Assembly (NCBI RefSeq): GCF_027594745.1
Contig: NZ_CP110854.1
Span: 1,308,241 to 1,372,240 of the forward strand
DNA length: 64,000 nt
Source: Saprospira grandis
Lineage (GTDB): Bacteria > Bacteroidota > Bacteroidia > Chitinophagales > Saprospiraceae
Direction of reading: 5' to 3'
Shown here in pieces: positions 11,779-60,275 of the stretch (position 1 is the stretch's first letter; the number at the start of each line of letters is the position of its first letter). A program made the position numbers and the translations under genes. Below the pieces are notes generated by a model. The model saw nothing but the letters and a program-made list of their open reading frames with translations, was not told the DNA's origin and ran no database searches.

Positions 11779-11890
11779 AGGCCCTAAAATCAACAGACCG
11801 CTAAATTTCGCCGCTAAGCGAGCCTAGCTAATCTCTAGTAGGGTCAGCCCAGAAAAAAAAGATAGGACCTTATAGATACGCCCGGAGGAG

Positions 11891-12200
11891 TTTGTAAACT
11901 GCAAATTAGCTCTGGCGTCACGCCAGAGGCGTTTTGCAACTGCAGATTAGCTCCGGCGCCACGCCAGAGGCATTTTGCAAATGCAGATTAGCTCTGGCGC
12001 CACGCCAGAGGCGTTTTGCAAATGCAGATTAGCTCTGGCGCCACGCCAGAGGCGTTTTGCAAATGCAGATTAGCTCCGGCGTCACGCCAGAGACGTTTTG
12101 CAAATGCAGATTAGCGCTGAACAGCTGTATAAAGCTGTTTTGCAAATGCAAATAAAGGCTAGCGCCAAGCCAGAGGCATTTGTAAACTGAAGATAGGTCC
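11891..12200. repeat. Tandem array of a 41-bp unit (about 7 copies, degenerate at the ends), each carrying a perfect 8-bp-stem hairpin CTCTGGCGyCACGCCAGAG
   Basis: Units GTTTTGCAAATGCAGATTAGCTCTGGCGCCACGCCAGAGGC repeat head-to-tail with 0-3 mismatches and no intervening unique spacers. Confidence 0.9.
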
Positions 12201-13399: not shown

Positions 13400-13572
13400 T
13401 TTTGGGGCTGCCCCTGCGGCCTTCGGCCTTGGGTCGGGCTGTGTCGCAGCTCGCAGGTCTGCTCGGCCCTGCGGCGGCTTTGCCGCCTGGGTCTGGCCTG
13501 CGGCCACTGCTGTCCATCCCTCAGCCGCGTCGCTACGCTCCTTTGCGGCCCTTCGGGCCTGTAGGAGGCAGA
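13400..13572 (+). repeat. Intergenic repeat module A, forward
   Basis: TTTTGGGGCTGCCCCTGCGGCCTTCGGCC...CTCGCAGGTCTGCTCGGCCCTGCGGCGGCTTTGCCGCC...CATCCCTCAGCCGCGTCGCTACGCTCCTTTGCGGCCCTTCGGGCC. Confidence 0.85.
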
Positions 13573-16492: not shown

Positions 16493-17425
16493 TTAGCTCA
16501 GCACCATATCCTCATAGCGGATAAACTGCTCAAAGCCTTTTTTGGCAAAATAGGCTTTGGTTTCGGCTTCGCTGCGTTGGCTACTGACGAGGACGAAATC
16601 GCCGCCCCAGGCGCCTAGGGGTTTAACGGTTCCCCAGAAATCCTCAAAGAACTGGGCTTTGGGTCCTTCTTGGCCCAGGATGGGTTGCAAAAGGGCCTGA
16701 TGTTCTTCGAGCAACTCCTCAAAATCTTCCAAATCCTTACAGTATTGGGCCACATTATGCGTAATCTGGCTAATTCTGGGAATGGGGGCTTCTCTTTCTT
16801 CTGCGGGCTTTACTTTATAGTGGACCAAAGCTTCGCGGCTGCTCTGCTTCTTATTGAGGTGCACAAAATAAAGCTGATCTTTAAACTTCGGGGCAAAGGG
16901 AGCGGGATGAGCCTGTGGTTGTCCATTAAACAAACGGTAGAGAATAGGTCCCTGGGCCTTGGCTGCGGCCAAATCATAGCCTGAGCCGCCAAAGCTTTCG
17001 GCCAGAAGTTGGTGGGCATCTACCTGCGCCCAATCGGCTAATAAACTGACTAAGGTAGAAGAAGAGCCTAGTCCCCAATCTCTAGGAAACTCTAGTTTTG
17101 TGGTTACTTCTAGTCCTTGGCCATCTGCTAAAAAGTTTGGATTATGTTCTTGAGCAATTTGGAGCAAGATGAGCAGGCGTTCGGCCTCTTCGGCCTCGCC
17201 TTCAAACTTAATCAGTTCCAAATCGGATAGGCTGACCCAAATCTCTAGCCAGCAATGGCCATTTTCTTCTAGGCTGCGCCAATGCAATTGGCCGGCCTTT
17301 TCGCCTTTTTCAACCTGCATACTTTGGCCCTTTTTGGTGGGCAATGCCAGAGCGGTAGCGCCCTCGGTCACAAAATACTCGGCCGTAAGCAAGAGCTTGC
17401 CTTTGGCATGTTGTGAAAAAATCAT
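16493..17425 (-). CDS. GHMP-family kinase (possible mevalonate-pathway kinase)
   Basis: GHMP motif PRDWGLGSSSTLVSLL; about 310 aa. Confidence 0.6.
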   Translation of the reverse strand: MIFSQHAKGKLLLTAEYFVTEGATALALPTKKGQSMQVEKGEKAGQLHWRSLEENGHCWLEIWVSLSDLELIKFEGEAEEAERLLILLQIAQEHNPNFLADGQGLEVTTKLEFPRDWGLGSSSTLVSLLADWAQVDAHQLLAESFGGSGYDLAAAKAQGPILYRLFNGQPQAHPAPFAPKFKDQLYFVHLNKKQSSREALVHYKVKPAEEREAPIPRISQITHNVAQYCKDLEDFEELLEEHQALLQPILGQEGPKAQFFEDFWGTVKPLGAWGGDFVLVSSQRSEAETKAYFAKKGFEQFIRYEDMVLS

Positions 17426-17447
17426 AGAGTTTAATTTATTTAGTGTA

Positions 17448-18257
17448 CTATTTTTCTGTCTTCAATTCGGCCTTGCTATAATAGCTTTGGCCTCTACTAT
17501 AATACTGCTCTTCCCAAGAGCGGATAGAATGCGGGAATTTGGTTTCAAACTGAATTTTCAGGCTGCCTTTTCCCTGCGCATAAGTCAGCTGATAGCTGGC
17601 CAGTTCTCCTTCTTCGCTGAGGCTTGCCTCTGCCGTTTTAGGGACCAAAAGGCTATGATACAATTGTGACAACAAACTAGATGGCAAAAACTCAAAGCGG
17701 CCCAAAGGCAGCTTTTCTGGAGAAATGCGAATGAGCGCAAACAACTCATCTTGCAAAAGCACTTTAGGGAGATCTCGCTGCTGATCGCCCTCCTTAGTCG
17801 CATAAGAAAACTGCTGCTGCCGGTAGTTATAGGCCCTGAGGTTAATCTGGTCAAAACGATGTCCCTCCCAGTTTTGTAAGCTATTGCTCACTTTATAACA
17901 AAAAGGCTCTGCCACCAAATCAATGGGGCGAAAAACAGACTGCATCAAACGATATTCCCCCTCCTTAAAACTCCGCAATTGATTGAGCTCCAAAACGGGG
18001 ATGGCTCCCTCATCCTCGGCCTGCACTTCATGTTGTTTGGAGCGAGAAAAATACTCCGCCTTGAAAATAAGCTGGGTTTGGCCTTCATATTTTTGCCCAT
18101 CTAGCTCCTGGACCAAATCATAATGATTGACCTCCCGTTTGCCTGTTAACCAATAAGCCTTAAATTCTTTAGACGGCTGCCAATTAGGCCCAGCCAAAAA
18201 GGCAAAGCCCAAACAACTAGATAATAAGAAAACGGCTAAAACGGAAAACTGTCTCAT
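17448..18257 (-). CDS. Hypothetical secreted protein
   Basis: Signal peptide MRQFSVLAVFLLSSCLGFAFLAG; no known motif. Confidence 0.45.
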   Translation of the reverse strand: MRQFSVLAVFLLSSCLGFAFLAGPNWQPSKEFKAYWLTGKREVNHYDLVQELDGQKYEGQTQLIFKAEYFSRSKQHEVQAEDEGAIPVLELNQLRSFKEGEYRLMQSVFRPIDLVAEPFCYKVSNSLQNWEGHRFDQINLRAYNYRQQQFSYATKEGDQQRDLPKVLLQDELFALIRISPEKLPLGRFEFLPSSLLSQLYHSLLVPKTAEASLSEEGELASYQLTYAQGKGSLKIQFETKFPHSIRSWEEQYYSRGQSYYSKAELKTEK

Positions 18258-18336
18258 ATTTTGTGCTTGAAAAAGGATGAGCGAGCAAAAAAAGCAGAAT
18301 ATCTCTTATCTTCCCTTTAGTATGAAGTAGATTAGG

Positions 18337-18906
18337 ATGTTAAGACTCTCTAAATATAGCAAAAAATCAAAACTTATGGCGAATTTCTCTTGGCTTCTTC
18401 TCTTGGGCTTTCTGACTTTTTCTCTATCCTATGCCAGTGCTCAAGAACTCATTAGCGACCCGGTCAGCTACGATGTTTTAGTTTTTGAACATTTTGAAAA
18501 AGGCAAAACTTACTTTATCCGAAAAGGCGGACGCATTAAGTACCGCCTCTACAACAGCCCCAAAACCACCTATAAAGGAGAGCTCCAAAAGGTCAATCGA
18601 GAAAGCATGATTATAGATGGCCGAGAAATTCCCCTTAAAGACTGTAGCCTCATTGCTGGCCGAGTACGCAGCCCCAAAGAGTTTCAGGGCGCTATTCTCC
18701 TGGGTATGGGCGCTGGTATCATCCCCCTATCCGCTGCCCTCTTGGGCGTCAACAGCATTGCTGGCCCTATTGTTATTGTGGGGGGCGTAGTGATACTTAC
18801 GGTGGGAATCATCCGATCTATGTCGGCCCGAAAGTTTAAAATGACTAAGGGCTGGGCCGTCTATGGCGGGCAACTACAATTTGACAGAAGTTATCAAAAA
18901 CAATAA
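18337..18906 (+). CDS. Hypothetical membrane-anchored protein
   Basis: N-terminal signal sequence and two C-terminal TM helices (GAILLGMGAGIIPLSAALLG / IVIVGGVVILTVGII). Confidence 0.45.
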   Translation: MLRLSKYSKKSKLMANFSWLLLLGFLTFSLSYASAQELISDPVSYDVLVFEHFEKGKTYFIRKGGRIKYRLYNSPKTTYKGELQKVNRESMIIDGREIPLKDCSLIAGRVRSPKEFQGAILLGMGAGIIPLSAALLGVNSIAGPIVIVGGVVILTVGIIRSMSARKFKMTKGWAVYGGQLQFDRSYQKQ

Positions 18907-18907
18907 A

Positions 18908-19723
18908 ATGCTAAAATCCTGGACCTATAAAGAGCAAGGCCTCGATGCCAAAGTAGAACTCTTTCATGATCATGTTCTCTGGACCAAAACGACCGAACAA
19001 CTTTATTTTTCATTGGAAGAGGCCCTTTGTCGCCCAGTTCCCATTGGACCCAACTGGATCGATGCCGAGCTGATCGACTACCTACAGTTGCTACTAGGCG
19101 AAGTAGAACTATCCGAGGCGGGCCAACTTATTTTTGCCTTCTACAAGGGCTTGCAAAGCCATAAACTAGTAGAACAAAGCTTCTTTTGGCCCAAACTGGA
19201 GGAAAAACAACTGCAGGCCCATTTTTCGGCCCAAGGGCTACAGCTCCTAGAAGAAAGCCCCTACCAAATTCTGCCCCTGCAAGCACAAAGACTTTGGCAT
19301 TTTTATCTGCAAGGAAGCAATATCCCCGGCCTGCCCTTTAAGGAAAGAAGACTTTGGAGCGACCAAATTAAACAACATCTTCGCTGGCCCCAACTCGCCC
19401 CTCCTTTTGCCTTGCTCGACTATAGCCGCCTGCCCCAAAAACGCTATGAGGCCCAAGACGAAAATAATGAGCTGCATTTCCTTTGGCTAGAAGAGGATTT
19501 TGCCCGAATTGGACAGGGCCGAGGCAGCCAAAGCCGTAGCGAAAAACGAAGCTACGAACAGTTGCTCCGAGAAGGCGAAAAAGGCCTGCCCAACTGCCTA
19601 GCTGCCTATTGGCCCATGCTCTACAAACTCCTCCAAAGGATGTATATTCGAGGCCAAATGCCCCAGCATCAGGAAAAGCCCAGCTATGAAGGGCCCGCCC
19701 CCGGACAAGCCCCTCCTGCCTAG
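18908..19723 (+). CDS. Hypothetical protein (start adjusted to MLKSWTYKE to avoid overlap)
   Basis: ORF 18863-19723 with coding-like composition; abuts the preceding gene. Confidence 0.4.
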   Translation: MLKSWTYKEQGLDAKVELFHDHVLWTKTTEQLYFSLEEALCRPVPIGPNWIDAELIDYLQLLLGEVELSEAGQLIFAFYKGLQSHKLVEQSFFWPKLEEKQLQAHFSAQGLQLLEESPYQILPLQAQRLWHFYLQGSNIPGLPFKERRLWSDQIKQHLRWPQLAPPFALLDYSRLPQKRYEAQDENNELHFLWLEEDFARIGQGRGSQSRSEKRSYEQLLREGEKGLPNCLAAYWPMLYKLLQRMYIRGQMPQHQEKPSYEGPAPGQAPPA

Positions 19724-19743
19724 TTATTGATCTTTTCTATTTC

Positions 19744-19906
19744 TTTTTTTTGGGGCTGCCCCTGCGGCCTGCGGCCTTGGGTCGGGCCATTGCGCAGCTC
19801 GCAGGTCTGCTCGGCCCTGCACAGGCTGCGCCTGTTTGGTCTGCCGCCTGCGGCGGCCCTGCTACAGCCCCTCAGCCGATAGGCTGGGGCTGCGCCCCAG
19901 CCCCAT
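19744..19906 (+). repeat. Intergenic repeat module A, forward
   Basis: TTTTTTTTGGGGCTGCCCCTGCGGCCTGCGGCCTTGGGTCGGGCCATTGCGCAGCTCGCAGGTCTGCTCGGCCCTGC...CCCTCAGCC plus a GGCTGGGGCTGCGCCCCAGCC hairpin. Confidence 0.85.
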
Positions 19907-19986
19907 AAGGTATATGGCTGCGCCATATATTTAGTAAAAAAATTGTCCGCCCCAAGATAAGCCCCCAATCAAATTTATTTGCCAAC

Positions 19987-21054
19987 ATGAAATGGTTCCA
20001 ACGTATCCGAAAAGCCTTTGAGGCCCTTCTAGAAGAAGATATCGAAAACGATTATGTAGATGATGGCCGCCCTTTCCGAATCTTGAGCCAAGAACGCTCC
20101 TTTCTGCCCAATTCGGCCAAAGGAGACTTTAGACTCTACCGCCTCCACCAAAGCTTTTGCGCCTGCTGGTACGAACTACTGGTCGTCCGCTCCGATGATG
20201 GCAACCTCCGCTATGAATTGCCCGGCTGGGGCCGTGCCGTAGCTATTAGCCCCGATAAAAGCAAACTCCTAGCTGCCCGAAATAAACAGCTGGCCATATT
20301 TAATGCCGCTACGGGCCAAATGATTGGCCAAGAAAAAACCCTAGACGCTTTTATCGATTTCCTGCTCTGGCTCCCCAATGAACAAATTGCCGCCACCGAT
20401 GGAGAAAAAATCTATCTGCTCGACCAAGAGCTAGAACTTAAGGCCATTATTCATGACCCCATAGATAAAGGAGGCTTTATTGCAGGGATGCAGCTGGGCC
20501 AACAGCCCCATGAAGTCATTATCCTTGATTTTAATCATCAACAACTGCGAAAAATAGACCTGCGATCGGGGGCCATCCTCAAAGAATCAACGGCCCAATA
20601 TGCCGAACAACTGTTTCGACAAGATGACCGCCTCTGGACCGCCCTGGTCAATGGGACCCAACTCCAAGAAATTCGCTTCTATAGCCTAGAAAAATTAGAA
20701 GAAAAGTATGCCCTGCCCTTTAGAGGCAAAAAGGGCATCCGCTTCGCCAACCAGCCCCCTTCCGATATTAGTTATCATCATTGGACCTCTTTGCCAGTTC
20801 TTTCTCCAGAAGAACAATTCTTGCTGGTGAATGATAATGCCGGCCTGCTCTGGCTGCTCGATGCCCATACCGGCGACCACCGCCGAACCTTCTCGCCAAA
20901 ATTGTTGCCCTATGTCTATGCCTGCCTCTGGCTCAATGAAGAAGAATTTGTGGCCCTTTTAGAAGACGGATTTGTGGCCAAGATGAATATCCGATCTAAA
21001 TCCCTTATGTTTAAACAACAAGATTTTGACCCTCAGCAAAATCGCTTCTTTTAG
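19987..21054 (+). CDS. Hypothetical cytoplasmic protein (possible beta-propeller-like repeats)
   Basis: 355-aa ORF with no signal peptide and no catalytic motif recognised. Confidence 0.4.
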   Translation: MKWFQRIRKAFEALLEEDIENDYVDDGRPFRILSQERSFLPNSAKGDFRLYRLHQSFCACWYELLVVRSDDGNLRYELPGWGRAVAISPDKSKLLAARNKQLAIFNAATGQMIGQEKTLDAFIDFLLWLPNEQIAATDGEKIYLLDQELELKAIIHDPIDKGGFIAGMQLGQQPHEVIILDFNHQQLRKIDLRSGAILKESTAQYAEQLFRQDDRLWTALVNGTQLQEIRFYSLEKLEEKYALPFRGKKGIRFANQPPSDISYHHWTSLPVLSPEEQFLLVNDNAGLLWLLDAHTGDHRRTFSPKLLPYVYACLWLNEEEFVALLEDGFVAKMNIRSKSLMFKQQDFDPQQNRFF

Positions 21055-21055
21055 A

Positions 21056-21290
21056 GGCGCAAAGCGCCTGGCCACAACAAGCCCTTTAGGGCGTAGTTCG
21101 ACGACCAAAGGGAGTAACCGATGCGCAGCAGAGGCGCGAAGCGCCTGGCCTAGCGATGCGGCGGGGTGGCCGAAGGCCAGACCAAGCAGGCTTTGCCTGC
21201 GAAGGGCCGAGCAGACCTGCGAGCCCCAAAGTGTAGCGCCGACGAGCGAAGCGAGGCGGAGGCCCCAAAACAGACAGACAAAAAAACCTA
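21056..21290 (-). repeat. Intergenic repeat, long variant (module C + module A), reverse
   Basis: Contains rc of CGGTTACTCCCTTTGGTCGTCGAACTACGCCCTAAAGGGCTTGTTGT (module C) followed by GGCCTAGCGATGCGGCGGGGTGGCC...GGCCGAGCAGACCTGCGAGCCCC...GGAGGCCCCAAAA. Confidence 0.85.
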
Positions 21291-21309: not shown

Positions 21310-24300
21310 ATGCAAAAAAAAGCAACAGAAGCGCAGTTCTTCTTTTCTCAACTGCTCAAGCTACAGCAAGTAGAGCAACCTTTGGGGGCCAAATATCAGG
21401 CATTAGATGCCCTTTTGGTCCAGCTATTTTTACAATTGACCGAAAAAGAGCGCCTACATTTTAGTGATCGCTCGGCACGGATTGCCTTTTTATCTCATAA
21501 GGAGGACCTCAGTCGCTCGGTTCAATGGCGCATTTACCAAATTATTAAGCGGGCCAAATGGATCCGCAGAAAAGAGCTGGAGCCTACGGCTGGCCAATAC
21601 GCCTCGGCCCTAAAGACCGTGGCCTTTGCCATTGCAGCCCTTTGTCATGTTCCTTTGCCCGAAGAATTGCGGGCCTATTTGCCCAGCGATGAGGAAGAAG
21701 AGCAGGAAGACCGCAACCCCTTCCCTATTAAAGAAGGCATTATTGAGGAGCTCAAAGTGGTGGTTTTGCAAATAGATGCCGAGCAAGAGCTCATCATCTG
21801 CCAACCTTATGGAGAGGACTATACCGACCAGCTCAGGCTGCGTTATAATGTGCCCGAAATCAATGCGCAGTTTAACTCGACCATTGAGCTGATGCAAGAT
21901 CATTTTCCCGCTGGGGCCATTTTGCAATTGCTGCAAGTCTTGGTAGAAGAATCGGGAATTTTGCTGCCCAAGCGCATCATCTTAGAGCCCGACTACCTGG
22001 TTGATGTGACCAGCATTGCCGAATGTTTTCAGCCACAGGGCGCTTCGCCCTACCTCTTTTTGCTCAAAAAGTTTTCGGCCTATGAAAATAGCCTACCTTT
22101 GATGCTGGGAAATATTGCCAACCGCTTTTTGGACCTCTTGAGCAAGAACCCCAAGCTGAGCTTTCAGGAAGAATTTAAGAAGCTCTTTAGCCTTAATCCC
22201 TTGGGCTTTGCCGACTTTAAGGATACCGATATTCGCAAGACCTATCATGAGGCCAAAAACCACTTTATCAACCTTCAGCATATTATCCTCAATGAGTTTC
22301 CCAAGCAGGGCATCGAGCGAGAGCGCATTTTGTTAGAGCCCTCTTTTTACTCTGCCCTTTATGGGATTCAGGGACGTTTGGACCTTTGGCAGCCGCCAGC
22401 AGAAGGCGATGATAAGGCATTGATTGTGGAATTGAAGAGTGGCAAAACCTTTATGCCCAATAAGTACAACCTCAATCATAATCACTATGTACAGACCTTG
22501 CTCTATGGATTGCTGACCAAATCGGTTTATCCTAGCTATAAGAGTTTGGCCCACATTCTTTACTCCAAATTGCAAGAAAAACCGCTGCGTCTAGCCCCTA
22601 GCACGCAGTTTAAGGAGGATGAAGCCTTGGCCCTTCGCAACCAGATGGTGATGATGGAGCGACAGCTGGCCCAATTGGACCAAAAATCACTGGAAGAATA
22701 TGGCCTTTTGCATCAGTTAGGGCCTGCCATTATGCCCAAAGCTAGCGGCTATACCGCCAGAGGATTGGAAGAATTTGAGGCCTGCTTTTCTAAGCTAAGC
22801 GAGCTAGAACGCCGCTACTTTATTGCCTTTTGTAGCTTTATTGCCAAAGAACAAATTTTGGCCAAAACAGGAGTAGAAGGAAATGAACGCGCCAATGGAC
22901 AAGCGGGGCTATGGCTAAGCGAAAGAGCCGATAAAGACGAACATTTTGAGCTTTTGGCGGGACTAGAACTACTAGAAAACAATAGCGAGCAAGAACCCCC
23001 TATTCTCCGCTTTAAGCGAACGGAAAATACCAACCCCTTGGCCAATTTCAGACAGGGCGATATTGCTATTTTGTATCCCGAAATGGGCCAGGATGACAAT
23101 GTCTTGAAGCATCAGATTTTTAAGGGCTCTATTTCTCAAATCAATGCCGAAGAGCTTTGTTTCAAGCTTTACTCTCCCCAATGTAGCGGCAGCGTTTTTG
23201 AGGCGGCCAAAAGCTGGAGCTTAGAACACGATATGCTCGATAAGGGCTTTACGGTTCAGTATCAATCGCTCTTCAAATTCATGAATTTCCATCCGGCCAA
23301 GCGACAGCTTTTATTGGGCCAAAGGGCCCCGCAAAAAAGCAGCGCTCCCCAAAATCGGAGCTTTATGCAGCCCTATTTGGGCGAAGACCAAAAGAGGATC
23401 CTCAACAAGGCCTTGGATGCCCAAGACTACTTTTTGTTGGTAGGCCCTCCGGGCACGGGCAAAACCAAGTTCATGCTGGCCCAAATGGTCGAATATCTCC
23501 ACCGAAACAGCCAAGAAAACATCTTGCTTTTGGCCTATACCAACCGAGCTGTAGATGAAATTTGCGAAGCCATTGAGGAAGTGGGTATTGATGATTATCT
23601 GCGGATGGGCAGCCGCTATTCTTGCGATCCTCGCTTTGAACATCGGATGTTTTCGGTGCAAACAGAAGCCCTAGCTAGCCGCAAAGATCTGCGAGCGACC
23701 ATCGACAAGCATCGGGTATTTGTCTCTACGGTTTCTAGCATGCTCAACCGTCCGCTTTTGCTCAAGCTCAAGCAATTTAATACCGTCATTATTGATGAGG
23801 CATCACAGATTTTGGAGCCCATGTTGCTCGGTTTGCTTCCGCATTTTCAGCGCTTTGTGCTTATTGGCGACCATAAGCAGTTGCCGGCGGTAGTTTTGCA
23901 GGACAAAGAGCAGTCGGCGGTTAAAGATGAGTTGCTCCAAAGCATTGGCTTGCGCAATCGCCGCAACTCCCTCTTTGAGCGCTTGTTTGAGCAGGCCCAA
24001 AAAGAAGGCTGGACCCATTGCTACGATCAATTGCAGCATCAGGGGCGGATGCATGCCGAAATTGCCCGCTTTCCCAGCCAATTTTTCTATGATAATAAGT
24101 TGTTGGAACTACCAGAAGACAATCCGATTGGCGACTGGCAGCAGCAGCCCCTACCCTTCCGTCCGATGCCCCAGGCCTCTGCTTTGGAGCAGCTTTTGGC
24201 CCAACATCGTCTGCTCTTTATTCCTAGTCAATCGGATTATCAGGGCAACAGCAAAACCAATGAGGAAGAAGCCATTCGGGTGGGCGAATTGGTCCATGCT

Positions 24301-24693
24301 TTTCGGAATTTATACGAGCAGCAGGGCGGCGGTTTTGCCCCAGAGGACCTTGGCATCATCACGCCTTTTCGGGCGCAGATTGCCCAGATTCGCCATGTTT
24401 TGGCCCAATATAATATGGGTTATGAGCAGTGTACCATTGATACGGTGGAGCGGTATCAGGGCGGGGCGCGCAAAATCATTCTCTTGTCTTTGGCCATCAA
24501 TATGAGTTATCAATTGCCGGCCATTGTTTCTCTTTCCGATGATGAGCAGGTAGACCGCAAGCTCAATGTGGCCCTTACTCGAGCTCGGCAGCAGCTGGTG
24601 GTTTTGGGCAATCCCAAGCTATTGGCCAATGATCCTCGTTATGCGGCCCTAATGGCCTGGATTAAGGAGCGGGGCGGCTATTTTACGCCTTAG
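21310..24693 (+). CDS. Nuclease-helicase fusion: N-terminal RecB/Cas4-like PD-(D/E)xK nuclease plus C-terminal SF1 Upf1/Dna2-family helicase (Dna2-like / Nhi-like architecture)
   Basis: Nuclease motifs GRLDLW ... IVELKSGK ... YVQTLLY (D, ExK, QxxxY). Helicase motifs: Walker A LVGPPGTGKT, motif II VIIDEASQ, ITPFRAQ, TIDTVERYQGGARKIILLSLA and ALTRARQQLVVLG (Upf1-like motifs V/VI). Confidence 0.75.
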   Translation: MQKKATEAQFFFSQLLKLQQVEQPLGAKYQALDALLVQLFLQLTEKERLHFSDRSARIAFLSHKEDLSRSVQWRIYQIIKRAKWIRRKELEPTAGQYASALKTVAFAIAALCHVPLPEELRAYLPSDEEEEQEDRNPFPIKEGIIEELKVVVLQIDAEQELIICQPYGEDYTDQLRLRYNVPEINAQFNSTIELMQDHFPAGAILQLLQVLVEESGILLPKRIILEPDYLVDVTSIAECFQPQGASPYLFLLKKFSAYENSLPLMLGNIANRFLDLLSKNPKLSFQEEFKKLFSLNPLGFADFKDTDIRKTYHEAKNHFINLQHIILNEFPKQGIERERILLEPSFYSALYGIQGRLDLWQPPAEGDDKALIVELKSGKTFMPNKYNLNHNHYVQTLLYGLLTKSVYPSYKSLAHILYSKLQEKPLRLAPSTQFKEDEALALRNQMVMMERQLAQLDQKSLEEYGLLHQLGPAIMPKASGYTARGLEEFEACFSKLSELERRYFIAFCSFIAKEQILAKTGVEGNERANGQAGLWLSERADKDEHFELLAGLELLENNSEQEPPILRFKRTENTNPLANFRQGDIAILYPEMGQDDNVLKHQIFKGSISQINAEELCFKLYSPQCSGSVFEAAKSWSLEHDMLDKGFTVQYQSLFKFMNFHPAKRQLLLGQRAPQKSSAPQNRSFMQPYLGEDQKRILNKALDAQDYFLLVGPPGTGKTKFMLAQMVEYLHRNSQENILLLAYTNRAVDEICEAIEEVGIDDYLRMGSRYSCDPRFEHRMFSVQTEALASRKDLRATIDKHRVFVSTVSSMLNRPLLLKLKQFNTVIIDEASQILEPMLLGLLPHFQRFVLIGDHKQLPAVVLQDKEQSAVKDELLQSIGLRNRRNSLFERLFEQAQKEGWTHCYDQLQHQGRMHAEIARFPSQFFYDNKLLELPEDNPIGDWQQQPLPFRPMPQASALEQLLAQHRLLFIPSQSDYQGNSKTNEEEAIRVGELVHAFRNLYEQQGGGFAPEDLGIITPFRAQIAQIRHVLAQYNMGYEQCTIDTVERYQGGARKIILLSLAINMSYQLPAIVSLSDDEQVDRKLNVALTRARQQLVVLGNPKLLANDPRYAALMAWIKERGGYFTP

Positions 24694-24747
24694 TTTTCTC
24701 CTTTTTGATCTTAATTTATCCCGCTAGTCATCATGACTAGGGGGATA

Positions 24748-24978
24748 TTTTTTTGGGGCCTGCCGCCTTTGGCGGCCGGGCCCTTGCAGGGCTCGCAGGT
24801 CTGCTCGGCCCTGCGTCGCCTTCGGCTCCTTGGTCTGGCCTGCGGCCACCCTTTCAGGCCCCTAGGCCTGCGGCCCTTCGGGCCTGTTTACTGTAGGTTG
24901 AAACCTACAGCAACAACGGTATTGCTTCGCAATGAAGCATAAATGAGGGTTAAAACCCTCATGAAGTTAACTTCTCGG
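24748..24978 (+). repeat. Composite repeat: module A (forward) fused to module B (three consecutive palindromic hairpins)
   Basis: Module A TTTTTTTGGGGCCTGCCGCCTTTGGCGGCC...CTCGCAGGTCTGCTCGGCCCTGC...GGCCCTTCGGGCC followed by CTGTAGGTTGAAACCTACAG / TATTGCTTCGCAATGA / ATGAGGGTTAAAACCCTCAT. Confidence 0.85.
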
Positions 24979-25041
24979 CCATCTTTTGATAAAAATTTCA
25001 GGCTAGTCAAGGCATATCCCCAAAGCGGCTTCTTTTGGTCC

Positions 25042-35981: not shown

Positions 35982-36228
35982 TCCGCTGCGGCTTCGCCTT
36001 GCGGCGGTTACTCCCTTCGGTCGTCGAACTGCGGACTAAAGTCCTTGTTGTCGCAGCTCGCTGCTGTTTTTGTGGGGCCTCCGCCTCCCTTTGGTCGTCG
36101 GCGCTACGTTTCGCAGCTCGCTATTCGCTCGGCCCTGCGCCAGCAAGCCGGCTAGGTCTGGCCTGCGGCCACTGCTGCACATCGCTAGGCCAAGGCGGCT
36201 TTGCCGCCTTCTGCTCCAAGAAAGTAAT
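35982..36228 (+). repeat. Intergenic repeat, long/dimeric variant (module C + module A), forward
   Basis: TTTTGGGGCCTCCGCTGCGGCTTCGCC...GGTTACTCCCTTCGGTCGTCGAACTGCGGACTAAAGTCCTTGTTGTCGCAGCTCGC, then a second TTTTTGTGGGGCCTCCGCCTCCC...CTCGCTATTCGCTCGGCCCTGC...CATCGCTAGGCCAAGGCGGCTTTGCCGCC. Confidence 0.85.
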
Positions 36229-43208: not shown

Positions 43209-43360
43209 GACCTTCGGTCATTCCTACCCCCAAAAGCTGCTGGGCCTGAAAACAGCAGCCCGCCATAAAATTAGAAGCAGGGGCTTTTAAGCTCCTGCGG
43301 CAAGAAAAATGAGGACCAACAAGATTGGCTGCGGCCTTTAGGCTGCAGTAAGCTCATTTA

Positions 43361-43578
43361 TATATCATTGCGAAGCAATACCATTGTTGCTGTAGGTTTC
43401 AACCTAAGTTCAATCCATGAGGGTTTTAACCCTCATCCATATATCATTGCGAAGCAATACCATCTGGCTGTAGGTTTCAACCTAAGTTCAATTCATGAGG
43501 GTTTTAACCCTCATCCATATATCATTGCGAAGCAATACCATCTGGCTGTAGGTTTCAACCTACAGTTAAAAGGGCCGA
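43361..43578 (-). repeat. Tandem array (78 bp x about 2.7) of module B (three palindromic hairpins)
   Basis: Units ATATCATTGCGAAGCAATACCATCTGGCTGTAGGTTTCAACCTAAGTTCAATyCATGAGGGTTTTAACCCTCATCCAT repeated at 43363, 43441 and 43519. Confidence 0.9.
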
Positions 43579-43712
43579 AGGCCCGCGGCTGAGGGATGGA
43601 CAGCAGTGGCCGAAGGCCAGACCCAGCCGCTGAAGGCGGCGCAGGGCCGAGCGAACAGCGAGCTGCGAAACAGCCCGACCCAGCCAAAGGCTGGGGCAGC
43701 CCCAAAAAAAGA
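43579..43712 (-). repeat. Intergenic repeat module A, reverse, directly abutting the module-B array
   Basis: GGGCCGAAGGCCCGCGGCTGAGGGATGGACAGCAGTGGCC...GGCCGAGCGAACAGCGAGCTGCGAAACAGCCCGACCC...GGGGCAGCCCCAAAAAAAG. Confidence 0.85.
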
Positions 43713-59915: not shown

Positions 59916-60039
59916 CGGTATTCGTCGCTGCGCTCCTCATTCGCCAATATGTCCCCGCCCACCCAGCCCTCTGCGGGATTCCCTAAGGAATCCCTCAGGG
60001 AGGCGGGCAACAAGCTTGCTGCAGACTTGGTCCAAATTC

Positions 60040-60118
60040 AACGCATGAGGGTTGAAACCCTCATGCCTATAAGATGGCGAAGCAATACCGCTCTTGCTGT
60101 AGGTGTTCAGCTACAGCT
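60040..60118 (-). repeat. Module B (three hairpins, partly degenerate), reverse
   Basis: ATGAGGGTTGAAACCCTCAT / GGCGAAGCAATACC / CTGTAGGTGTTCAGCTACAG. Confidence 0.7.
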
Positions 60119-60275
60119 AAAAAGGGCCGAAGGCCCGCAGGCTGAGGGATGGATAGCAGTGGCCCAAAGGGCCAGACCCAGCCGCCTTTGGCGGCGCAGG
60201 GCCGAGCAGACCTGCGAGCTGCGACACAGCCCGACCCGAAGGCCCAAAGGGCCGAAGGGGCAGCCCCAAAAAAAG
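60119..60275 (-). repeat. Intergenic repeat module A, reverse; with 59723-59915 it forms an inverted pair bracketing module B
   Basis: GGGCCGAAGGCCCGCAGGCTGAGGGATGGATAGCAGTGGCCC...GGCCGAGCAGACCTGCGAGCTGCGACACAGCCCGACCC...GGGGCAGCCCCAAAAAAAG. Confidence 0.85.

Follow-up and report, generated by a model that had tools for sequence, protein, structure and literature searches.

A Dna2-like nuclease-helicase of Saprospira grandis, probably an uncharacterised variant without an iron-sulfur cluster

The window analysed here is a 64,000-nucleotide stretch of Saprospira grandis DNA (contig NZ_CP110854.1, positions 1,308,241 to 1,372,240), and it carries on its forward strand a complete open reading frame (ORF), at positions 21310 to 24693 of the window, whose product joins a RecB-type nuclease to a superfamily 1B (SF1B) helicase in the order found in Dna2. 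The product is identical to WP_270100225.1 (Saprospira grandis), which is annotated only as 'AAA domain-containing protein', and the GC content of the gene resembles that of the remainder of the window. A first-pass annotation made from the letters alone had described a 1127-aa ORF with a set of nuclease and helicase motifs, and we found all of these in the translation as it had stated: GRLDLW (aa 355-360), IVELKSGK (aa 372-379) and YVQTLLY (aa 393-399) in the nuclease, and GPPGTGKT (aa 712-719), VIIDEASQ (aa 826-833), TVERYQGG (aa 1045-1052) and ALTRARQQLVVLG (aa 1088-1100) in the helicase. The gene and its parts are as follows.

21310-24693, + strand: Dna2-like nuclease-helicase gene, complete ORF with ATG start, 1127 aa
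21310-21699, + strand: HEPN-like helical bundle, aa 1-130, without a conserved Rx4-6H catalytic dyad
21727-21987, + strand: OB-fold domain, aa 140-226, occupying the place of the N-terminal OB domain of Dna2 (predicted model)
21997-22869, + strand: RecB-family PD-(D/E)xK nuclease domain, aa 230-520, aligned to the nuclease motifs of mouse Dna2
22381-22383 (D358), 22429-22431 (E374), 22435-22437 (K376), 22492-22494 (Q395) and 22504-22506 (Y399), + strand: nuclease catalytic codons
22951-23229, + strand: beta-barrel between nuclease and helicase, aa 548-640, predicted strands, within the continuous Dna2 alignment
23377-24669, + strand: SF1B (Upf1/Dna2-like) helicase core, aa 690-1120, Pfam AAA_11 and AAA_12
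23443-23466, + strand: Walker A motif, GPPGTGKT
23794-23808, + strand: Walker B motif, DEASQ

The protein has the architecture of Dna2

Pfam models AAA_11 and AAA_12 matched the helicase half of the protein (aa 690-1102, E=1e-29 to 1e-32); none of the Pfam nuclease models matched, so that only the helicase half was recognised by this route. No NCBIfam model, antiphage ones included, reached its curated cutoff: PLuB_AAA scored 247.9 bits against a cutoff of 999, and the IGHMBP2-family helicase model scored 184.7 bits against 348.9. The nuclease assignment holds despite the missing Pfam match because the protein aligns with mouse Dna2 across the nuclease and its catalytic residues are invariant among homologues (see below).

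When the single sequence was compared with the PDB by phmmer, mouse DNA2 was the top match (E=3.6e-36), with aa 342-1112 aligned continuously on Dna2 residues 262-1029 through the nuclease, the intervening domain and the helicase. A family profile built from 45 homologues gave the same result with greater significance (5eaw, E=5.8e-59, profile positions 337-1116 on chain residues 262-1035), and its remaining PDB matches, Sen1, Upf1, Ighmbp2 and SETX, were to the helicase only. In these alignments GKIDV, ELKTGK and QVVLY of mouse Dna2 pair with GRLDL, ELKSGK and QTLLY of the Saprospira protein. We also built an AlphaFold2 model on the family alignment (predicted local distance difference test score, 88.5; predicted template modelling score, 0.87) and compared it with the PDB using Foldseek. 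Dna2 again came first (5ean_A, E=3.1e-45, template modelling scores of 0.62/0.66, 1110 aligned columns), and the runners-up, Upf1 and Ighmbp2, were matched over the helicase region only (E~1e-29).

The first-pass reading of a nuclease followed by an SF1B helicase as the Dna2 arrangement was therefore borne out, since mouse Dna2 ranks first both by sequence and by fold. A RecB-type PD-(D/E)xK nuclease lies N-terminal to an SF1B helicase in one chain, and in the predicted model an OB fold, the nuclease, a beta-barrel and helicase domains 1A and 2A follow one another in the same order as in the mouse structures (5EAN, 5EAW, 5EAX). Going by this model, the fold of the chain as a whole was shown to match Dna2. 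Both proteins also share every helicase motif and, in the nuclease, the catalytic D, ExK and QxxxY. They differ in that sequence identity is only ~20%, in that the Saprospira protein carries an additional N-terminal HEPN-like bundle, and in that it belongs to bacteria of the Fibrobacteres-Chlorobi-Bacteroidetes (FCB) group, which lack RPA and the eukaryotic partners of Dna2. The N-terminal segment of about 350 aa, which had no label in the first-pass annotation, can now be divided into the HEPN-like bundle, the OB fold and the start of the nuclease domain, whose N-terminal portion corresponds roughly to aa 230-340.

Catalytic residues are invariant in the family

Conservation was measured in an alignment of the query and 239 full-length homologues (240 sequences). 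The nuclease residues E343 (a further catalytic residue of this domain), D358, E374, K376, Q395 and Y399 are invariant in 240/240, as are the ATPase residues K718, D829 and E830; helicase residue R1091 is kept in 239/240 and Q1050 in 238/240. Because the catalytic residues do not vary, we conclude that nuclease and ATPase are both under strict purifying selection.

The HEPN-like domain presents a different picture. Residues 1-130 do form a helical bundle of the HEPN type, and an R57-x5-H63 pair is present in the query, but the Rx4-6H catalytic motif is not conserved across the aligned members: position 57 is Arg in 85% of the family, and position 63 is His in just 105 of the 240 sequences (44%), with Q, N, S or T elsewhere. 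Given the poor conservation of H63, we reject a catalytic HEPN RNase. Since the RNase site is not conserved, we read the domain as a non-catalytic binding module, most likely one that binds nucleic acid or a partner.

The iron staple of Dna2 is missing

A 4Fe-4S iron staple is a defining trait of the Dna2, AddB, Cas4 and Bad nucleases (PMC7430649), and in Dna2 it is formed by one Cys upstream of the nuclease core and a CX2CX5C motif downstream of it. The first-pass annotation had taken cysteines flanking the nuclease core as a hint of such a cluster. The three residues that it quoted, C239, C492 and C508, all exist in the translation. However, the columns of C492 and C508 hold V, T, A, I or S in relatives, and only two columns of the nuclease half are commonly Cys, namely that of C239 (79%) and that of I340, which is Ile in the query and Cys in 66% of the family. 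A CxxCx4-6C motif downstream of ExK was found in 0/240 full-length members, which leaves the family without the CX2CX5C part of the staple, and the CKYCSQIGNC segment of mouse Dna2 falls opposite a Cys-free segment of the query. On this analysis of cysteine conservation we reject an Fe-S cluster, and with it the earlier hint. Judging by the aligned sequences, the iron staple is absent from the whole family, Ignavibacteria and Cloacimonadota members included; the nuclease domain would then presumably be held together by protein structure alone. The Saprospira protein thus has the same PD-(D/E)xK core, with D, ExK and QxxxY, as the iron-staple nucleases AddB and Cas4, but not their four-cysteine staple.

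We also came across a distant Dna2-like protein of 979 aa (26% identity) in a Ktedonobacteria metagenome-assembled genome (L061:7344-10283). This protein keeps a canonical CX2CX5C motif, CGRCAMRASC, 88 aa past its ELKTG nuclease motif, and its presence indicates that Fe-S-containing Dna2-like proteins occur in other bacterial phyla.

The family is large and appears to be vertically inherited in the FCB group

A word-indexed search returned hundreds of homologues of 1110-1150 aa with 42-56% identity, some of them labelled 'Dna2' (IMG) or 'DNA2/NAM7 family helicase' (UniRef). When the non-helicase 690 aa alone served as the query, at least 723 clusters (50% identity) were matched at E<=1e-30. 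Among the matches listed, nearly all 150 clusters have a length of ~1100 aa, and the shorter ones look like fragments. The family ranges over Bacteroidota, Ignavibacteria and Cloacimonadota. Identities to the window protein, given below, were obtained with GTDB species representatives, except for the CCB-QB6 and Aureispira values, which come from the word-indexed search.

S. grandis DSM 2844: 98%
Saprospira sp. CCB-QB6: 92%
Aureispira: 49%
Other Saprospiraceae, Lewinellaceae, Chitinophagales: 40-46%
Dysgonomonas, Proteiniphilum: 36-38%
Prevotella, Bacteroides, Muribaculaceae: 31-36%
Ignavibacteria, Cloacimonadota: 29-31%

Identity drops with taxonomic distance, a pattern of vertical descent. 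The gene was found in 4/4 Saprospira genomes seen, and the 90%-identity cluster of WP_270100225.1 includes S. grandis DSM 2844, strain Lewin and Saprospira sp. CCB-QB6. The gene is chromosomal and appears to be inherited vertically within a large FCB-group family. The first-pass annotation had named an orthologue in conserved core-genome context in all relatives as the finding that would speak against immunity and for a housekeeping repair factor; a vertically inherited chromosomal orthologue in relatives is largely that finding.

Genomic context

Downstream of the gene, the window holds a convergent gene for a TPR/PD40/OmpA protein, a cobalamin adenosyltransferase gene and a gene for a HemJ-like protein; upstream lie five ORFs without Pfam matches and, beyond them, rplT and rpmI. 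In five Saprospiraceae loci rplT is upstream of the gene, and in one of them (L006) it is immediately upstream. Because the gene lies downstream of rplT in several Saprospiraceae, its chromosomal position appears to be stable.

The five ORFs between rplT and the Dna2-like gene (16493-21054; 310, 269, 189, 286 and 355 aa) had no Pfam, PADLOC or PDB sequence match. Three of them have homologues in a relative (locus L004), where only the 355-aa one is still adjacent to the orthologue.

19987-21054, + strand: 355-aa ORF upstream of the Dna2-like gene, a lineage-specific neighbour (Saprospira and L004 only)

This ORF ends 255 bp upstream of the nuclease-helicase gene on the same strand and shares 52% identity with its L004 counterpart, which directly adjoins the orthologue there. 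The description of the gene as monocistronic in the first-pass annotation was accordingly right in part: it disregarded this same-strand neighbour, whose homologue lies directly against the orthologue in L004. An all-against-all clustering of ORFs from 81 loci (orthologue loci and the window region) yielded no neighbour family conserved beyond close relatives, and on this clustering a conserved operon partner was rejected. The 103 immediate neighbours of ~55 orthologues were varied and of housekeeping type, with outer-membrane beta-barrels, alanine racemase, Mur ligase, diacylglycerol kinase, MGMT and similar genes among them.

The N-terminal half gave zero matches among 50,697 phage records, and matches in IMG/VR extended over the helicase core only. 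Three of 72,556 plasmid records were matched by the N-terminal half, all of them from Bacteroidales and non-mobilizable, one being a 1.77-Mb replicon.

Saprospira sp. CCB-QB6 and S. grandis DSM 2844 (L001:13385-22391 and L005:11385-17882) have a gene of 1672-2451 aa with a type IX secretion system (T9SS) signature (Por_Secre_tail) that separates the Dna2-like gene from the TPR/PD40/OmpA gene. The present strain lacks this gene (24694-25041), and the downstream flank is therefore a strain-variable spot. Elsewhere in the window, two tandem tRNA genes (1229-1302 and 1328-1401) have identical Rfam scores.

Intergenic repeats and a putative terminator

The following features lie in the intergenic regions on either side of the gene.

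21053-21290: upstream intergenic repeat copy, GC-rich and multi-hairpin, not specific to this gene
24748-24978: downstream intergenic repeat copy, inverted with respect to the upstream copy
24717-24754, + strand: terminator-like hairpin (24717-24747) with a T7 run, 24 nt past the stop codon

The first-pass annotation had described the gene as isolated between two repeats. Both copies are real, but they do not set this gene apart: the same repeat occupies 23 sites in the window, in most intergenic gaps and in both orientations, at about one per 2.8 kb (for example at 2298-2437, 13400-13562, 19745-19862, 36005-36215, 43353-43710 and 60044-60219). Because the repeat lies in most intergenic gaps, the bracketing carries no specific meaning, and the 23 sites led us to reject the repeats as mobile-element boundaries or as a sign of gene-specific isolation. 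The core motif of the repeat had 14 matches where 0 were expected, the fold of 24694-24990, which takes in the downstream copy, had a z-score of -7.8, and no Rfam family matched. With its chain of short hairpins, the repeat looks like a Saprospira element of the repetitive extragenic palindromic (REP) or miniature inverted-repeat transposable element (MITE) type.

The terminator-like hairpin was read from the sequence and was also predicted in the fold of 24694-24990; a scan with a terminator consensus did not list it.

Tandem units of 78 nt at 43353-43563 and 60017-60113 hold the hairpin CATGAGGGTT..AACCCTCATG, and the closely similar hairpin ATGAGGGTTAAAACCCTCAT (24943-24962) is the distal part of the repeat 3' of the Dna2-like gene. 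A further tandem array at 11841-12194 consists of ~6-8 units with a 41-nt period (GTTTTGCAAATGCAGATTAGCTCTGGCGCCACGCCAGAGGC) and one GC hairpin per unit; it is not CRISPR-like, because it has no spacers.

Possible functions

We interpret the protein as probably an uncharacterised, Fe-S-free variant of Dna2-like nuclease-helicases, one that serves as a housekeeping processor of single-stranded DNA (ssDNA) flaps or ends. A mechanism can be proposed by homology to Dna2 and to Bad of Geobacillus stearothermophilus, which has been characterised biochemically (PMC7430649). The OB and barrel domains would bind a 5' ssDNA tail or flap and thread the DNA into the RecB-type nuclease site; the SF1B motor behind the nuclease would translocate 5'->3' at the expense of ATP, and the nuclease would cleave the ssDNA endonucleolytically. 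In the cell, this activity would serve to process 5' flaps or ssDNA tails where forks have stalled or DNA ends are broken. On the comparisons made here, a role in flap, fork or end processing in FCB bacteria appears likely.

Bad is the closest point of reference. Like the Saprospira protein, it is a bacterial fusion of a nuclease and, behind it, an SF1B helicase related to Dna2. Bad and Dna2 have ssDNA endonuclease, 5'-3' translocase and helicase activities (PMC7430649), and the Saprospira protein would be expected to share the ssDNA endonuclease and 5'-3' motor activities. The published description of Bad, on which our comparison is based, gives 1245 aa, nuclease Asp 150, Walker A Lys 815 and an Fe-S cluster, with a Type III-like methyltransferase gene alongside; it also describes bacterial Dna2-like enzymes as rare and sporadic (PMC7430649). 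In the Saprospira protein, by contrast, the corresponding residues are D358 and K718, the nuclease does not occupy the extreme N-terminus of a ~1245-aa chain, and no methyltransferase is found among the recurrent neighbour families of orthologues. Moreover, unlike Bad, the Saprospira family is Fe-S-free and is abundant across the superphylum.

Several considerations weigh against a housekeeping DNA-processing role. For every member of the family, polarity, substrate (DNA or RNA) and role in vivo would have to be carried over from relatives, and the protein lacks the Fe-S cluster, which in Dna2 and Bad is reported to matter for the structure, so that the mechanism may not carry over. The helicase core is of the Upf1-like type, a group that takes in RNA helicases, and the N-terminal fold is HEPN-like, as in many proteins with RNA-related or defence functions. 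Neither a conserved partner nor an operon links the gene to a specific pathway, and it may not be a 'core' gene of Bacteroidota.

Two of these points would fit an RNA-directed helicase-nuclease that surveys RNA or R-loops as Upf1 and Sen1 do and uses its HEPN-like domain to bind or cleave RNA: among solved helicases, the RNA helicases Upf1, Sen1/SETX and Ighmbp2 come closest after Dna2, and the N-terminal fold is HEPN-like. Even so, we regard this as improbable. Both the global fold and the alignment through nuclease, barrel and helicase are specific to Dna2, which outscores every RNA helicase, and the Rx4-6H dyad expected of a HEPN RNase is unconserved, H63 being present in fewer than half of the members. 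To our knowledge, every characterised enzyme that couples a RecB-type PD-(D/E)xK nuclease to an SF1B motor acts on DNA, as Dna2, Bad and AddAB do (PMC7430649).

In the first-pass annotation a single-gene immunity factor had seemed plausible. An effector of this kind, Nhi-like or Hna-like, would act alone against phages or plasmids by degrading foreign DNA as it replicates, and would follow the same general logic of nuclease plus SF1 helicase. Nhi of Staphylococcus likewise joins a nuclease and an SF1 helicase in a single polypeptide. The gene is mostly stand-alone, its downstream flank differs between strains, HEPN-like N-terminal folds are common in defence proteins, and the homologue Bad adjoins a Type III-like methyltransferase (PMC7430649). 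Searches with defence-system profiles returned only helicase-core or generic matches for the protein. The strongest PADLOC matches, to MkoA/MkoC of Mokosh, reached E=3.5e-61 on the shared Upf1-like SF1B core and were restricted to it (MkoA, aa 798-1107); there was no full-length profile match, the protein has no phospholipase D (PLD) family nuclease domain, no PLD or MkoB partner lies nearby, and the N-terminal 690 aa are unrelated to Mokosh. The PADLOC Nhi model (PDLC02372) covered only the Walker A region (aa 689-744), with 20.6 bits, and, as noted, the antiphage models of NCBIfam stayed below cutoff. Around the gene, PADLOC was negative on the window neighbours save for a generic OmpA/MotB domain match. 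On the 103 flanking proteins it gave sporadic generic matches (IscS-like proteins to SspA/DndA, OmpA to ZorB), so that almost no genuine defence genes, and no defence enrichment, were found in ~55 orthologue loci, whose surroundings are not defence islands. Added to this are the phylum-wide, vertical-looking distribution, the uniform length, the lack of phage-record matches and the near-absence from plasmids. On the PADLOC results for the protein, its window neighbours and the flanking proteins we reject a defence effector, and we rate an immunity function as very unlikely overall. The 355-aa ORF upstream invites the further suggestion of a two-gene module: both genes are read from one strand, their homologues in L004 directly adjoin each other (0-bp gap), and the pairing is kept in all Saprospira genomes seen. 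However, the partner is present in only 4 of ~58 loci and absent from Aureispira and every other lineage, and in the window the 255 bp between both genes contain the hairpin-rich repeat. Such a module is extremely unlikely.

Implications

We found no publication on this Bacteroidota Dna2-like family, and nothing relevant beyond the Bad paper (PMC7430649). The search reported there may have missed the Saprospira-type family because it required Fe-S motifs (PMC7430649). The resemblance to Dna2 has already been annotated automatically by some pipelines; what appears to be undescribed is that the iron staple is absent, that a HEPN-like domain is present in addition and that the family extends across a superphylum. 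For the mining of defence systems, this locus is a warning that immunity should not be deduced just from a nuclease-helicase that stands alone between repeats.

In eukaryotes, nuclease-helicases of the Dna2 type have a central part in replication and in the resection of double-strand breaks; Bad is the only characterised bacterial relative of Dna2. A more far-reaching proposal, which we put forward tentatively and hold to be rather doubtful, is that in Bacteroidota and their FCB relatives the protein is a Dna2 orthologue, present throughout the phylum by vertical inheritance, that lost the Fe-S cluster, gained the HEPN-like domain and acts as a main 5'-flap or end-resection nuclease-helicase. 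If true, bacterial Dna2-like enzymes could no longer be regarded as rare and sporadic, and the mechanism and origin of Dna2 could be studied in a natural model that is Fe-S-free. If the protein is a housekeeping enzyme, as we think probable, it would supply a missing piece of DNA repair in Bacteroidota, a subject that has received little study, and provide an oxygen-insensitive, Fe-S-free model enzyme for Dna2 mechanics. The family, with at least 700 clusters (50% identity), extends across a superphylum to which major taxa of the gut, the mouth and the environment belong, and it shows that an enzyme can have the Dna2 architecture but no iron staple.

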